This document shows positions 2,647-20,327 of a DNA stretch of 36,443 bases, in pieces. The stretch lies in the IMG/VR virus record IMGVR_UViG_3300045988_129709; one strand, written 5' to 3'. Under the pieces are notes generated by a model that saw only the letters and a list, made by a program, of their open reading frames with translations, did not search any database and had not been told where the DNA came from. This DNA comes from a virus. Every line of letters starts with the position of its first letter. The stretch's first letter is position 1. Both the position numbers and the translations under genes were made by a program.

Positions 2647-2862
2647 TTGGAAGCAGTAAAAAAAGAAATGAAGGAAAATCAAAAAGAACATGACAAAACA
2701 TATTTGACAGATTTTCTATCTGACATAGAAAACAAACAACCAAAGTCAGATATTCAAATTAAAAGAGCTTATGAAATATATGAAGAATATACAAACCTTA
2801 AAGGAAATTCATATGTACATAGTAAATGGGAAGAATTAGAAAAGAAAGGGGCATTGAAATGA
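2647..2862 (+). CDS. Hypothetical soluble 71-aa protein immediately upstream of lysin (not holin-like)
   Basis: ORF with a TTG start. Its stop overlaps the lysin start codon (ATGA). No hydrophobic segment. Confidence 0.4.
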   Translation: MEAVKKEMKENQKEHDKTYLTDFLSDIENKQPKSDIQIKRAYEIYEEYTNLKGNSYVHSKWEELEKKGALK

Positions 2863-4241
2863 AAAAACAAGATAGAAATATAACCATAGCAGTTATAGTG
2901 GCTATGGTTATGATATTTTTTAGTGCAATATTTTTTATAGATGATAAGGAGCTAAAAAAAGATGTAGTAGAAAAAGTTACAGACACTGTAACAGATATAG
3001 CAACAAGAGAAATGAGTAAAGAAGAAATAGAATCTTTACCATCTACAGAAATAATAGAACAAACAGAAGAACAAGAGAATGCTGTATCAAATGAGCAAGA
3101 AGGAGAAGAAACAGAAGGATTTCAACTTCAAGGAGAAATAGCTTATGAAGGAGCAAAAGCAGAAACTTGGAATGTAGAATTAGGGGACTATGTTGGATTA
3201 ACATATTATTCACAATTAGATAGTAGATGGGCAAGCAAGATGTATTCTAGTGTAGGCAATCCAAACCAAACAATAGGTTCTAGTGCTTGTGGCCCTACAT
3301 GTGCTTCAATGGTAGTAACAGCTACAAAAGGAGCAATAACACCTGATACTATGTCAGATTTATTCGTAAAATACGGTTATCGTTCAGCTAACAATGGAAC
3401 GTACTGGAGTGCTTTTAGAGCTGTAGCAGATGAGTTCAATATCGGTTATACAGAAATAACAGATATTCAAAGAGCATTACAATTATTGCAAAACAATAAT
3501 TATGTAATAGTAAGTTGTGGAAACGGATTGTTTACAACGGGTGGACACTTTATCGTTCTAGTTGGAATAGATGGAGATACATTAAAGATATATGATCCAT
3601 ATTTATATAGTGGCAAATTCTCAACAAGTACAAGAAGAGGCAAAGTAACTGTAGATGGAAATACAGTATATTGTAGCATAGACAATTTTAGAAACTATGC
3701 TAATTATAGTAAATTCTTTGCATTTGCTCATGATGGAAATGTACAAGTAAACAACACACGTCCAGTTACAACACAAGCATATACTAGATATGTAAATGCT
3801 AAAATAGGATTAAATATAAGAAATAAGCCTAATGGATATATTGTAGGTGGATTATCTAATGGTACAGCAGTAACAGTATATGAAACAGATGGCAATTGGA
3901 GTAGAATAGGGACAAATAAATGGGTTTCTAGTAATTATCTAACAAGTTATATGGCTGTAGCTTCAAATTCGGTTAAAACAATTTCTGGCGTAAAATACAC
4001 TACAGGAAAATACAAAGTTAATGCTAGTATATTAAATGTTCGTACAGGTCCAAGTACAAAATATAAAATAAAAGGATATAAACAATTAACAGCAAATGCA
4101 AGATACCAAAATAAAAGATTAGGAAATCAATATACTAATGGATTAAAACGTGGAGTAGTAACAACAGTTACTAAAGTTCAAAATGGATTTGGATTAATTC
4201 CAAGTGGGTGGATTTCATTAAATTATTGTACTAAATTATAA
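2859..4241 (+). CDS. Cell-wall hydrolase/endolysin: N-terminal signal-anchor TM segment, papain-like cysteine peptidase (C39-like) domain, two C-terminal SH3b domains
   Basis: MKKQDRNITIAVIVAMVMIFFSAIFFI is a TM segment. SSACGPTCASMV...GGHFIVLVGIDGD is a Cys/His peptidase core. The YTRYVNAKIGLNIRNKPNG...SNYL and YKVNASILNVRTGPSTKYK...GWISLNY motifs are SH3_3-like. The start has the RBS AAGAAAGGGG. Confidence 0.75.
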   Translation: MKKQDRNITIAVIVAMVMIFFSAIFFIDDKELKKDVVEKVTDTVTDIATREMSKEEIESLPSTEIIEQTEEQENAVSNEQEGEETEGFQLQGEIAYEGAKAETWNVELGDYVGLTYYSQLDSRWASKMYSSVGNPNQTIGSSACGPTCASMVVTATKGAITPDTMSDLFVKYGYRSANNGTYWSAFRAVADEFNIGYTEITDIQRALQLLQNNNYVIVSCGNGLFTTGGHFIVLVGIDGDTLKIYDPYLYSGKFSTSTRRGKVTVDGNTVYCSIDNFRNYANYSKFFAFAHDGNVQVNNTRPVTTQAYTRYVNAKIGLNIRNKPNGYIVGGLSNGTAVTVYETDGNWSRIGTNKWVSSNYLTSYMAVASNSVKTISGVKYTTGKYKVNASILNVRTGPSTKYKIKGYKQLTANARYQNKRLGNQYTNGLKRGVVTTVTKVQNGFGLIPSGWISLNYCTKL

Positions 4242-4245
4242 TATT

Positions 4246-4286
4246 AGAGCTAGATTAGATTAATTTCTAGTCTAGCTCTTTTTTTG
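4246..4286 (+). terminator. Rho-independent terminator after lysin
   Basis: Inverted repeat AGAGCTAGAT...TCTAGCTCT followed by T7. Confidence 0.7.
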
Positions 4287-4416
4287 TGCAAAAATGCAGT
4301 AAAATCAAGGCATATAACTTGTTGCTTTAAAAATAAAAACGGCTTAAAATTGATTGTGAAGGGTCGTTTTTTAGCTAAGTTTCAAGGAAAAATCAAATTT
4401 GTAAATTTACAAAATT

Positions 4417-4527
4417 TGTGCTATAATATTGACAGATAGAAAAAGAAATGTTACAATTTTGTCACAGAAATGTTACAAAAAAGAAATGTAATATTTATTG
4501 ACAAAAGATAATATTAATATTAATATA
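4417..4527 (+). promoter_or_regulatory. Tandem sigma-A-type promoters (TTGACA-17-TACAAT at approx 4429-4457; TTGACA-17-TAATAT at approx 4498-4526; extended -10 TGcTATAAT at approx 4419-4427) interleaved with direct repeats GAAATGTTACAA (x2, plus partial GAAATGTAATA)
   Basis: Read directly. Repeats at approx 4445-4456 and 4467-4478 lie between and overlapping the -35/-10 elements, an operator-like arrangement. Confidence 0.45.
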
Positions 4528-5007
4528 ATAAAAAAGAATAAGAGCCGAAGCCCTTATTCAATCAGTTGTTTTTTAGGAGTTTGAGATTTATTCGAATCAG
4601 TGGGATTTGGATAAATCTCAAATTTTCTTTTGGTAGACTCGTATTTAAACGAATATCCACGTTTTGAGCAAATATGTATCAAACCGTAAATTCCACCGGA
4701 AGAAAATTATTACACCTAATAACCAGAACAAATAATTTTGCATGGTGTATCCCCCTTCTTTTGTATTTGCACCAACTCATCTTGCGAAAAGTCAGGTGCA
4801 TAAAATAATATTTAAATGTTGGACATAGAAGTTTAAATACTAATCTATGCACCCAACTCGAAGGAGTAAAACAACTTGTGCTTATTATATATAAAAATAT
4901 ATACTGTGTCAACACAAAAATTGACAAAAAATAACAGTAGTCTTCGACAAATTTCAACACAACAATTCAACATAAAATGTTATAATATCATAAAGGAGAT
5001 GATAGTT

Positions 5008-5181
5008 ATGGAAAAAGCATGTAAAGACTCTCTACAAATGATAAAAGTATTAAATATAAAAAATGAGAAAGAGTATAACAAGTTGCTAAAATTCTATTTA
5101 ATATTATCATCAGAAAGTTTAAAAGGAAGATTAAGAACAAGAAGATTCAAAAAAATAATAAAATTAGCAAAAGAAGTCTAA
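5008..5181 (+). CDS. Small basic 57-aa protein (MEKACKDSLQMIKVLNIKNEKEYNKLLKFYLILSSESLKGRLRTRRFKKIIKLAKEV); moron candidate
   Basis: Strong RBS AAAGGAG and an extended -10 TGtTATAAT upstream. A terminator overlaps the stop codon. Confidence 0.5.
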   Translation: MEKACKDSLQMIKVLNIKNEKEYNKLLKFYLILSSESLKGRLRTRRFKKIIKLAKEV

Positions 5182-5197
5182 AGGGCTTCTTTTTTTG
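5171..5197 (+). terminator. Rho-independent terminator (AAGAAG-loop-CTTCTT + T7)
   Basis: Hairpin plus U-tract read directly. Confidence 0.55.
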
Positions 5198-5312
5198 CAT
5201 ACTTTCTAGATATTAGTACATACTAAAGTTGGTGGTAATATGAAAAGCTATTATTTTCATATAAGAAAATGGCACTTTTCCACCATAGTGGACAAAATGT
5301 AAATTTAATAAA

Positions 5313-5329
5313 GTTGCCCAAATGCAACA
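5313..5329. promoter_or_regulatory. Palindromic operator-like site GTTGCCCAAATGCAACA (copy 1) upstream of XRE gene
   Basis: Inverted repeat GTTGC-N6-GCAAC. The same 17-mer occurs at about 5636. Confidence 0.5.
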
Positions 5330-5377
5330 AAATACATGATATACATGAAAATGAGCATACTAAAGATGGGTGATTTT

Positions 5378-5578
5378 ATGAAGGTAAAGATATTATTAAG
5401 AGAAGTCCGACTTAAAAAGAATATTACACTAGAAACATTAGCCAGATTATCTGGAATAAGTAAAGGACATTTAAGTAAAATAGAAAGACAAGAAAGAGAA
5501 CCTAAGATATCTACGCTAATACAAATAGCGATAGCTTTAAATGTAGATGTCAAAGAATTATATAAAGTTATATTATGA
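5378..5578 (+). CDS. XRE-family helix-turn-helix transcriptional regulator (66 aa)
   Basis: LETLARLSGISKGHLSKIERQEREP is a canonical HTH_3 motif. The ATG at 5378 has a GGGTGA RBS. Confidence 0.7.
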   Translation: MKVKILLREVRLKKNITLETLARLSGISKGHLSKIERQEREPKISTLIQIAIALNVDVKELYKVIL

Positions 5579-5635
5579 CACAATAAAACGTGTCATTTTT
5601 TGTTTTCATAAAAGAAAATGCCTCTTTCATAAAAT

Positions 5636-5652
5636 GTTGCCCAAATGCAACA
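5636..5652. promoter_or_regulatory. Palindromic operator-like site GTTGCCCAAATGCAACA (copy 2) upstream of 56-aa ORF
   Basis: Exact second copy. The flanking TCATAwAAGAAAATG motif is also duplicated. Confidence 0.5.
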
Positions 5653-5708
5653 AGATTAAATATATCTTTCGGTTATGAACGTTCTAAATAAATGTAGGAG
5701 GATATGTA

Positions 5709-6049: not shown

Positions 6050-6089
6050 GCCAATATAGCTCAGTTGGTAGAGCAACGGATTCGTAATC
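6050..6089 (+). other. attP core: 5' 40 nt of a tRNA-Thr(CGU)-like gene (acceptor stem, D-arm and anticodon stem-loop GCCAATATAGCTCAGTTGGTAGAGCAACGGATTCGTAATC), then diverges; no T-arm or 3' half
   Basis: The D-arm TAGCTCAGTTGGTAGAGC is canonical. The anticodon loop TTCGTAA gives anticodon CGT. The match to tRNA structure ends 2 nt after the loop. Confidence 0.5.
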
Positions 6090-6140
6090 AAAACGTCAAA
6101 AACTATATAGACCGGACAGCTCTAAAGAAAATCTGACTTG

Positions 6141-6168: not shown

Positions 6169-7242
6169 CTAATTAACACAATTTTTGATATAATTATTTA
6201 TTAAATCATCTGCATTTTCTCTTTGTTCATCCAAATGAGTATAAACTTCATAAATCATAGAAGCGGAAGCATGTCCCATTAAGGCTTGCGCTTTTTTTAT
6301 TTTGACACCAGCATAATATAACATTGTACAATATGAATGTCTTAATTGATGACATGTAAACTTTATATTATTTTCTTTGTTCTTATTTATACTATATAAA
6401 AAACTTTCTAAGTGTCTTCTTACTGCAACATCAGTCAACATTTTGCCGTCTTTTTCTTTTACAAATAATAATCCATTTTTAGAATTATTAACTAAATTAA
6501 CAACTATATCATATATGTTATCTAAAATAGGTATAGTACGAACTCTATTATTTTTAGTAGTTTTTACTATAGGTTGGTTATGTAGAAGAACAACAGCTTT
6601 GTTAATAGAAATAGTTTTATTTTTTAAGTCAACATCATCAACAGTTAATGGGATTATTTCTTCTTTTCTCATGCCAGTATAACGCATCAAAATAAAAAAT
6701 GGGGCATATTTGTGTGTTGAATTAATAAGAAGATTATCTTCGTCAATTGTTAAAGGCATACGTTCATTTTTTATAACTTTTAACGGTTTTATATTACTAG
6801 CAACATTTTTAATTATTATATCATTATCAATAGCATCATTTAAAATTCTTTTCACATAAGCAAGCGTTTTATTTGCAGTTGTAGGTGTATTTTTCATATC
6901 TGAAAGTAATTGTTCAACATCATATTTTTTTATATCTTTAATTTTTTTAAATCCAAGAGATGGAATAATATGGTTGTTTACAATGGATTTATATTCTTCA
7001 ATTGTTCTAATTTCTTTACCAGCAGAATTTAATTCAATCCACTTAATTGCGAAATTCTTCATCTTTATATTCTCTATATCAGATAGTCCATTATAAGAAT
7101 TATGCATAAATTCAATATATTGTTTGTACAAATCTTTTATATCTTTAGAATATATATATTTAGATTTTCCGTTTGTAGTAATTTTTTTCATTAATCTTCC
7201 GTCTGTTCTGATAGTATAAGTCATATCTTTATATTTGTTCAT
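6169..7242 (-). CDS. int: Tyrosine-type site-specific integrase
   Basis: C-terminal motifs HQLRHSY and LMGHASASMIYEVYTHL match the R..HxxR..Y catalytic signature. The gene is adjacent to attP. Confidence 0.9.
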   Translation of the reverse strand: MNKYKDMTYTIRTDGRLMKKITTNGKSKYIYSKDIKDLYKQYIEFMHNSYNGLSDIENIKMKNFAIKWIELNSAGKEIRTIEEYKSIVNNHIIPSLGFKKIKDIKKYDVEQLLSDMKNTPTTANKTLAYVKRILNDAIDNDIIIKNVASNIKPLKVIKNERMPLTIDEDNLLINSTHKYAPFFILMRYTGMRKEEIIPLTVDDVDLKNKTISINKAVVLLHNQPIVKTTKNNRVRTIPILDNIYDIVVNLVNNSKNGLLFVKEKDGKMLTDVAVRRHLESFLYSINKNKENNIKFTCHQLRHSYCTMLYYAGVKIKKAQALMGHASASMIYEVYTHLDEQRENADDLINNYIKNCVN

Positions 7243-20100: not shown

Positions 20101-20327
20101 TTAGTTATTACCAGTATGCTAGGTAACTGATAATATAAAAAAGGTAGTTGTATTTAGTTGAGTATAATTGACCTCCTTTCAGTATTAAATTTGCCAAAGA
20201 ACTTTCCTAGCGAGTTCTAATATCTAGGTAAAGTCTTGATAGTAAGATGCGGGTCTTGGACACCTGAGAGTGTAGGTGTAACTCCTACTACCTAGACCAA
20301 AATGTTTATAAGAAAAGAGGTAATAAT

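Follow-up and report, generated by a model that had tools for sequence, protein, structure and literature searches.

A candidate type I toxin-antitoxin cassette with a split toxin reading frame downstream of a temperate phage lysin gene

What is encoded downstream of the lysin gene in the temperate phage genome IMGVR_UViG_3300045988_129709, where an initial annotation saw no credible open reading frame (ORF) and proposed a plus-strand regulatory RNA instead? The window, meaning the whole 36,443-nucleotide stretch of DNA that was analysed, has a GC content of 28%, and the studied region is limited upstream by the lysin terminator (4246-4279). The cassette at 4398-4942 is probably a type I toxin-antitoxin module, combining a minus-strand gene for a small membrane toxin with a plus-strand antisense RNA, and its sequence points to a new type I family without database annotation, possibly with a new regulatory layer.

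The cassette and its two predicted, opposed transcripts

The whole module occupies a mobile cargo cassette (4398..4942), which is missing in ten close relatives (L001-L010) that share both flanks with the window (4200-4284, 4290-4397 and 4943 onward) and carry other cargo in the slot. The backbone spacer at 4290..4397 lies outside the module; most relatives have it, to one side or the other of the cargo they carry. The accessory island described initially therefore stands for 4398-4942, but it had also taken in the gene of a 57-amino-acid (57-aa) basic protein (5008..5181, plus strand), which is a conserved backbone neighbour. The extended -10 promoter of this gene lies in backbone sequence from 4943 onward that is 96-100% identical in cassette-less relatives, so the gene is a neighbour and not a part of the element.

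The comparative sample comprises about nine distinct copies in six lineages. Cassette identity to the window is 100% in L028, 93-95% in L011, L015 and L018, 87% in L019, 80% in L041 and L042, and 73% in L020, with more distant copies in L053, L051 and L055/L058. Degenerate DNA patterns recovered L011, L015, L018, L020, L051-L055 and L058, and the diverged L019 copy was recovered with a spurious 93-aa ORF as bait. Eighteen further loci, obtained from three more members of the 57-aa family, held no cassette, and a scan of genome contigs returned chance matches only (Pelagibacterales, Woesebacteria, Tenacibaculum). The cassette of L015 is 95% identical to that of the window and its adjoining lysin merely 77%, the pattern expected of a mobile module. 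Across about 45 loci collected via the 57-aa family, the slot carries HicB with or without HicA, PIN_3 with a 59-aa partner, PemK fusions, DUF3800 or PBECR3, and unknown ORFs, with the cargo mostly on the minus strand. The slot between the lysin and the attachment site attR thus appears to be a hotspot that exchanges type I and type II toxin-antitoxin modules, and it is useful for finding new ones. In two relatives, about 1 kb without a called gene separates a HicA/HicB pair from the 57-aa gene (L075:1493-2501 and L078:707-1715); these gaps show no similarity to the window cassette and may conceal a further small-gene or RNA module that lacks annotation.

The absence of a credible ORF does not hold for the minus strand, where a consensus promoter, a Shine-Dalgarno (SD) sequence, an ATG at 4743 and a terminator follow one another. 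The promoter, TTGACA-17-TATAAT (4912-4884, predicted start at about 4877), is the sole 12/12 match to the sigma-70 consensus within 4200-5400, and relatives have a promoter in the same place with altered sequence (TTGACT-18-TATATT, TTGACT-18-TATAGT or TTGACA-17-TATACT). Promoter-like sites as a class are not significantly enriched (13 versus 8.3 +/- 3.2 in shuffles); terminator-like sites are (5 versus 0.3 expected). The predicted toxin transcript of 348 nucleotides (nt), from 4877 to 4530, folds at -106.3 kcal/mol (z = -7.1), and the L020 and L041 mRNAs fold independently to the same architecture (z = -10.3 and -9.3). It would end at an intrinsic terminator, GAATAAGGGCTTCGGCTCTTATTC followed by T6 (4559-4536, to 4530), which is kept in all variants.

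The structured 5' untranslated region (5' UTR) of this mRNA, about 134 nt long (4744..4877), corresponds to the GC-richer segment singled out initially, and the GC contrast itself was recovered (31-36% over about 4550-4850 versus 19-28% in the flanks). The SD sequence AAGGGGGA (4757-4750) stands 6 nt ahead of the ATG; its counterpart in every relative is GAAGGAGG, GAAAGGGG or GAAGGGGG. It is predicted to pair with an anti-SD sequence, CUCCUUC (4866-4860), in every variant, including L019, where a compensatory change from C-G to U-A gives CCCUUUC:GAAAGGG instead of CUCCUUC:GAAGGGG. This helix stacks on a long hairpin (4858-4790) formed by a 27-nt inverted repeat (4790-4816 / 4832-4858). The duplication of TGCACC(C)AACTC reported initially is present as well: copy 1 is the 5' arm of the long hairpin, and copy 2, GAGUUGGUGCA (4778-4768), is an alternative partner of its 3' arm.

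Both arrangements are supported by covariation. In the alignment of eight 5' UTRs, 94.9% of the cells of the anti-SD:SD helix and long hairpin are paired, against 40-53% with the partners slid, and seven pairs are changed on both sides, a figure matched by 0/500 shuffles. For the alternative helix in eight relatives the values are 95.2% paired against 29-46%, with two double-sided changes. The hairpin arm (UGCAUCC) and both copies (GGAUGCA, GGAUGUA) are altered jointly in L051, and the two conformers are equal in predicted energy in L015. Folding of the RNA without its 5' arm yields the alternative hairpin with an unpaired SD in 8/8 variants. The duplicated motif is, on this covariation, an alternative helix of the minus-strand mRNA; the mutually exclusive helices of the initial annotation are real, but they belong to this mRNA and not to a plus-strand leader. 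A further feature, a 5'-3' clamp, would join AGUUGUUUU (4868..4876) to AAAAACAACU (4564-4573) just upstream of the terminator. The duplex is predicted in 9/9 variants at -6 to -10.5 kcal/mol, values equalled by 0.1%-2% of shuffled 5' ends, and L020 has rebuilt it with a different pair (GUGAUUUA and UAAAUCAC) that does not cross-pair with that of the window.

The plus strand carries a tandem promoter block for the predicted antisense RNA (4399..4526). P2 (4429-4457, TTGACA-17-TACAAT, 11/12 with an extended -10 TG) and P3 (4498-4526, TTGACA-17-TAATAT, 10/12) had been recognised initially, and P1 (4399-4427) adds a third; the three positions are kept in 10 aligned loci, toxin-less remnants included. 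The direct repeats noted with them were likewise found, as two exact copies of GAAATGTTACAA (4445-4456 and 4467-4478) with no other exact copy in the window and a degenerate third copy, GAAATGTAATAT, at 4483-4494. They overlie extended -10-like elements of the conserved block. They were also considered as sites of the neighbouring helix-turn-helix (HTH) protein and rejected, there being no obvious relation and the likely palindrome of that protein, GTTGCCCAAATGCAAC, being different. The block further contains 7-bp palindromes TGTTACA, TGTCACA and TGTTACA at 4449, 4460 and 4471 with an exact 11-nt spacing, and related motifs are conserved in relatives; they may be regulator-binding sites or simply overlapping extended -10 elements.

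The predicted short form of the antitoxin RNA, from P3 (start at about 4533), is about 100 nt long (4533..4632). It comprises a hairpin (4536-4559), a single-stranded linker, a terminator hairpin (4579-4623) and a U-run, and its predicted fold reaches -34.4 kcal/mol (z = -5.7). The terminator is the inverted repeat first described as 9 bp long; it exists but extends to about 19-20 bp (4579-4623) and is followed by TTTCTTTT, and hairpin and U-run are kept in all variants, with the terminator conserved across the 10 aligned loci. The complementarity of the antisense RNA to the toxin mRNA is complete over the last ~27 codons, the 3' strand of the clamp and the toxin terminator. One stem position in L041 is a U-G pair on the antisense strand and a C-A mismatch on the mRNA strand, which suggests that selection acts on the plus-strand hairpin.

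The initial proposal of a plus-strand riboregulator, leader or small RNA (sRNA) with operator repeats controlling the 57-aa gene is very improbable against these data. Plus-strand promoters do exist, and either strand could in principle fold into the helices, but transcripts from these promoters would meet the plus-strand terminator (4579-4632) ahead of the structured segment. It is the minus strand that holds the 12/12 promoter with SD, ORF and terminator, and only there are the G-U pairs and the anti-SD:SD pairing sensible; the 57-aa gene keeps its promoter and context in more than 40 cassette-less relatives. What survives of the proposal is a small regulatory RNA and an alternative-helix element; the leader of the 57-aa gene does not.

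Several relatives have lost the toxin and kept the antisense promoter block or RNA (L043/45/49, L052 and L054), the toxin being internally deleted in L052 and reduced to its 3' end in L054. Such loss is expected if the ORF is harmful, and it bears on a second explanation, in which the product is a non-toxic small membrane protein, such as a lysogenic-conversion, superinfection-exclusion or lysis-timing peptide, with an antisense RNA that merely tunes its level. This explanation draws on the lack of a sequence relative of known function, on the many roles of small single-helix phage proteins and on the lysis genes that the module adjoins. It is nevertheless quite unlikely, since the ORF has been deleted repeatedly from loci that still keep the antisense RNA, the other occupants of the slot are toxin-antitoxin genes, and four layers of repression (SD occlusion, the clamp, three antisense promoters and the split ORF described below) fit a harmful product better. 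Three of the loci (L043:2209-2440, L045:111-340 and L049:744-980) are 'orphan' slots that combine the three-promoter block with a different two-hairpin RNA of about 95 nt, GAGTAAGGCTTTCGCCTCACTC followed by GGTTGGAG...CTTCAACC and T6. These orphan loci have no toxin ORF and no ATG on the opposite strand, and their RNA may represent either an orphan antitoxin or a phage sRNA in its own right.

The split reading frame of the putative toxin

The toxin ORF of the window is divided between two frames. Part 1, in the zero frame, has 15 codons, MQNYLFWLLGVIIFF (4743-4699), and part 2, in the +1 frame, has 47 codons and a stop, GGIYGLIHICSKRGYSFKYESTKRKFEIYPNPTDSNKSQTPKKQLIE (4697-4554), with the stop codon inside the terminator stem. 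Between them stands a zero-frame CGG (4698-4696), the proposed +1 shift site, at which C4698 would be skipped and GGU read. The product without frameshifting would be a 32-aa peptide, MQNYLFWLLGVIIFFRWNLRFDTYLLKTWIFV (4743-4645), whereas the composite protein, of 62 aa, would have a single hydrophobic helix (YLFWLLGVIIFFGGIYGLIHIC) ahead of a Lys/Arg-rich basic tail. On the same RNA chassis L053 carries an unbroken 62-aa ORF, MTIKSIIIALLVGSFFLLALCILIHRCSKDGYSLKYQSKKRKIEIYPNPIDKSQNPKKTTFE, with a tail homologous to the +1 frame of the window, and L051 an unbroken 59-aa ORF. The split itself, in which an ATG frame of 27-32 aa is accompanied by a conserved +1 tail, recurs in four lineages (the window type, L041/42, L020 and L055/58) at 66-81% nucleotide identity.

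Both parts of the ORF are under purifying selection, as judged from ratios of non-synonymous to synonymous change (pN/pS) based on Nei-Gojobori counts. For part 1 the ratio is 0.19-0.56 against relatives. For the +1 tail it is 0.11 between the window and L011, both of which are split (5 synonymous to 2 non-synonymous changes, Fisher p = 0.005), and 0.22-0.55 among the split lineages, mostly with p < 0.005. The zero-frame tail, meaning the C-terminal 17 codons of the 32-aa ORF, gives 0.9 or higher and shows no purifying selection. From the junction up to the antisense overlap, the window and L011 differ at five sites, and each of these is a third position of the +1 frame. This second frame offers no independent start: L020 and L041 have no ATG, GTG or TTG in it, and +1-frame stop codons lie just upstream of the junction in every lineage.

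The junction reads UUC UUC CGG UGG in zero-frame codons of the window, UUC UUU CGG UGG in L011, L015, L019 and L020, UUU UUG CGG AUU in L041 and GCA UUG CGG AUU in L055. Its position is offset by one codon between two groups, with a zero-frame CGG at both, so that this presumably slowly decoded A-site codon is conserved at the proposed shift site in 4/4 split lineages. CGG accounts for 2/6484 codons in the long ORFs of the window (0.31 per 1000). Re-pairing of the P-site tRNA in the +1 frame works for UUU to UUC (L011, L015, L019 and L020) and fails for UUC to UCC (window) and UUG to UGC (L041 and L055), where a Ty3-like shift without slippage would then be needed. No prfB-like upstream SD stimulator was seen at the shift site.

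Three other ways of reading the junction were considered. A 32-aa toxin with a long 3' untranslated region was set aside in view of the intact homologues and of a substitution pattern that marks the +1 frame as coding. Internal initiation at TTG 4682 does not fit, the codon being unconserved in L020 and L041 and the changes upstream of it being synonymous only. Transcriptional slippage is unlikely because the T runs measure only 3-5 nt.

A more serious competitor is that the module is a type I relic, in which a 1-nt insertion has inactivated the toxin, no frameshifting occurs, and only the antisense RNA, kept for example as an anti-addiction RNA, matters, with or without the 32-aa peptide. Toxin genes are indeed often lost at the slot with the antisense side kept, L019 carries an additional stop codon and has lost its normal one to a hairpin deletion, and the UUC-CGG site of the window re-pairs poorly in the +1 frame. 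A relic would hardly explain why purifying selection acts on the +1 tail both inside split lineages and across them (pN/pS 0.11-0.55), why the five changes from L011 are confined to +1-frame third positions, or why four lineages as divergent as these keep the same split. The junctions one codon apart with CGG in both groups speak in the same direction, as does the maintenance of SD, anti-SD and promoter, which a dead gene would not need. Inactivation by insertion is accordingly judged unlikely.

We lean slightly towards a gene that is read as 4743-4699 and then 4697-4554, skipping C4698, by a frameshift that is actually used. The further proposition that the toxin cannot be made without a programmed +1 frameshift at this almost unused CGG, giving an extra gate on a type I toxin, is about evenly balanced; such a frameshift could couple toxin output to the availability of tRNA-Arg or to translational stress. 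If the frameshift is real, five controls would converge on one small gene, namely SD occlusion, the clamp, the duplicated-arm switch, the antisense RNA and recoding, and the 62-aa product would be unpredictable for gene callers that rely on standard ORF finding. The L019 copy (469-811) looks degenerate, with a zero-frame TGG-to-TGA change and an antisense-terminator hairpin shorter by 6 nt that carries the +1 frame beyond its normal stop; its compensatory anti-SD/SD change is nonetheless present.

Sites of comparable design are known from other settings. A review (PMC5009743) describes +1 frameshifting at rare CGG_A codons in glass-sponge mitochondria, with the extra C 5' of GGA. The window junction resembles the Ty3-type and glass-sponge CGG_A / UGG_A sites (PMC5009743) in the extra C 5' of a GGN glycine codon, the rare zero-frame CGG and the conserved downstream frame, and differs in its setting, a bacteriophage toxin gene. 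No report of recoding in a type I toxin was found in the literature searched, where the one match on antitoxin and frameshifting concerns the type II system MazEF, and a review of clostridial type I systems leaves frameshifting unmentioned.

Class membership, proposed mechanism and known systems

The assignment to type I follows from the architecture of the cassette. Its toxin ORFs (composite 62 aa; intact 59 and 62 aa) lie within or near the upper size of about 60-70 aa for this class, encode a hydrophobic membrane helix and have their own SD. A predicted cis-encoded antisense RNA with its own promoters and terminator overlaps the toxin mRNA at the sequence level, and the mRNA is predicted to be highly folded with an occluded ribosome-binding site.

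Several points weigh against this assignment or its frameshift component. Every promoter, start site, terminator and transcript end is a prediction, and the covariation statistics rest on few independent events, since there are only about nine distinct copies in six lineages. Class membership relies on architecture alone because no toxin or RNA family match was obtained. Pfam, NCBIfam and PHROGs gave no above-threshold match to the 32-aa, composite or intact toxins; exhaustive phmmer against 1.84 billion protein representatives gave 0 matches to the 32-aa peptide; and a tBLASTn search of 50,697 phage records with the 32-aa and 62-aa sequences gave only matches at E of about 9 in Aeromonas and Escherichia phages. 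An Rfam scan, suggested initially as a check, returned nothing at the gathering score and only irrelevant, chance-level matches at E up to 10. A padded 43-aa peptide query found no homologue, the exact 32-aa peptide was on no record in an exact look-up, and an exact look-up in a clustered protein collection returned only the L051 toxin, unnamed. The window codon before CGG, finally, is UUC and not UUU, so that its P-site tRNA re-pairs poorly in the +1 frame, and without a frameshift only a 32-aa peptide with an unconstrained tail would be made, in which case the toxin may be inactive.

If the type I assignment is right, the primary toxin mRNA would be translationally inert, with its SD sequestered and its ends clamped. 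Truncation or opening of the 5' end would let the copy-2 alternative hairpin form and free the SD, and a full-length 62-aa toxin would still need the +1 shift at the CGG (4698-4696), so that little toxin would be made. The abundant antisense RNA would pair with the mRNA 3' end, clamp site included, and lead to decay, presumably by RNase III on the model of SR4/bsrG (PMC3834814) and RatA/txpA; displacement of the 5'-3' clamp may be a further effect. Upon prophage loss the antitoxin would decay first, and the stable, folded toxin mRNA would then kill or arrest the cell. By analogy the role is likely prophage stabilisation, which has been shown for phiCD630-1 (PMC7699646); silencing of prophage toxins by RNase III has also been reported (PMC3531473).

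Among known systems, bsrG/SR4 and txpA/RatA of Bacillus subtilis prophage-like elements (PMC3834814, PMC3531473) share with the window module the convergent genes with 3'-end overlap, a small single-helix toxin, an SD sequestered in the toxin mRNA, the prophage location and an antitoxin RNA of ~100-200 nt with a terminator hairpin; RNase III-dependent decay would be expected here too. No similarity of toxin or RNA sequence to them was found in the profile libraries and Rfam, and the window module adds the clamp, the duplicated-arm helix, three antisense promoters and the split ORF. The Clostridioides difficile CD0977.1-RCd11 group (PMC7699646, PMC6563280) likewise belongs to prophages of low-GC Clostridia and shows convergent overlap, an AGGAGG-type SD 6-8 nt before the ATG, a toxin with a hydrophobic N-terminus and a positively charged tail, and a proposed role in prophage maintenance. 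RCd11 occurs in long and short antitoxin forms that arise from tandem promoters and share one terminator (PMC7699646), a layout that is also predicted for the window antitoxin. Homology detectable by tBLASTn, which defines the CD0956.2 / CD0977.1 group (PMC7699646), does not extend to the window toxin. The C. difficile toxins are 34-47 aa long against 59-62 aa here, and the window module has no riboswitch upstream of its antitoxin and a split ORF.

A third comparison is offered by aapA1/IsoA1 of Helicobacter pylori and by hok/sok (PMC5416894, PMC6733600), with which the module would share a long-distance 5'-3' lock, an occluded SD (both predicted here) and an alternative fold that should be the one open to translation. 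Their antisense RNAs act on the 5' or translation-initiation region, and their toxin mRNAs are activated by 3' processing. The window antisense RNA, unlike theirs, covers the mRNA 3' end including the 3' strand of the clamp (4533-4632, versus the SD at 4750-4757), and the alternative helix suggests activation from the 5' side, unlike hok and aapA1. Type I toxin-antitoxin systems are badly under-annotated, and the family in the window was missed by every protein and RNA library searched.

The carrier phage and its backbone

The sequence suggests that the carrier is a temperate phage of a putative low-GC gut Firmicute, with the module sitting as cargo at its right end. GenBank phages gave no match for the region (megablast, blastn) or for 25 kb of the window (megablast), and tBLASTn of portal and lysin against them gave matches all below 60% identity, the best at no more than 42% in gut 'Bacteriophage sp.' records. 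The carrier prophage group is widespread in human gut metagenomes, its backbone gene being present in more than 1300 public assembly blocks. That gene, the 57-aa ORF at 5008-5181, is real, as had been claimed: 1338 indexed blocks of public assemblies contain the identical protein, gut metagenomes making up many of them, and a homology search found 127 homologues, although the Pfam, NCBIfam and PHROG profiles contain no family that matches it. Its AlphaFold model is all-alpha (predicted local distance difference test score, pLDDT, 66.5), and Foldseek against the PDB returned nothing below E = 5.

The lysin gene (2826-4241, plus strand) encodes a hydrophobic N-terminal segment, ITIAVIVAMVMIFFSAIFFI, followed by a Peptidase_C39_2 domain and SH3_3 repeats, an arrangement that suggests an endolysin of the membrane-anchored or signal-anchor-release type. 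Amidase_2 lysins take its place in some relatives, and a serine recombinase replaces the tyrosine integrase (6169-7242, minus strand) in some. Downstream of the 57-aa gene, the 16-bp palindrome GTTGCCCAAATGCAAC occurs on both sides (5313-5328 and 5637-5652) of a small HTH_3 gene (5380-5578), and the two copies are likely an operator pair of this Xre-type regulator; the repeat also appears as blast cross-matches (5304-5333 / 5625-5656) in relatives. Host contexts of the related prophages number at least three, namely AgrB with a histidine kinase, Big_7 with an ABC transporter, and MraZ.

Rfam reports a tRNA at 20224-20296 (47.8 bits, E = 2e-7) where ARAGORN finds none; with an anticodon loop CUUGGAC read as UGG (Pro), it looks like a non-canonical phage tRNA. 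A weak, sub-threshold tRNA-like match (6050-6113, 18.4 bits), flanked by the last cargo ORF and the integrase, may belong to the attachment site attP.

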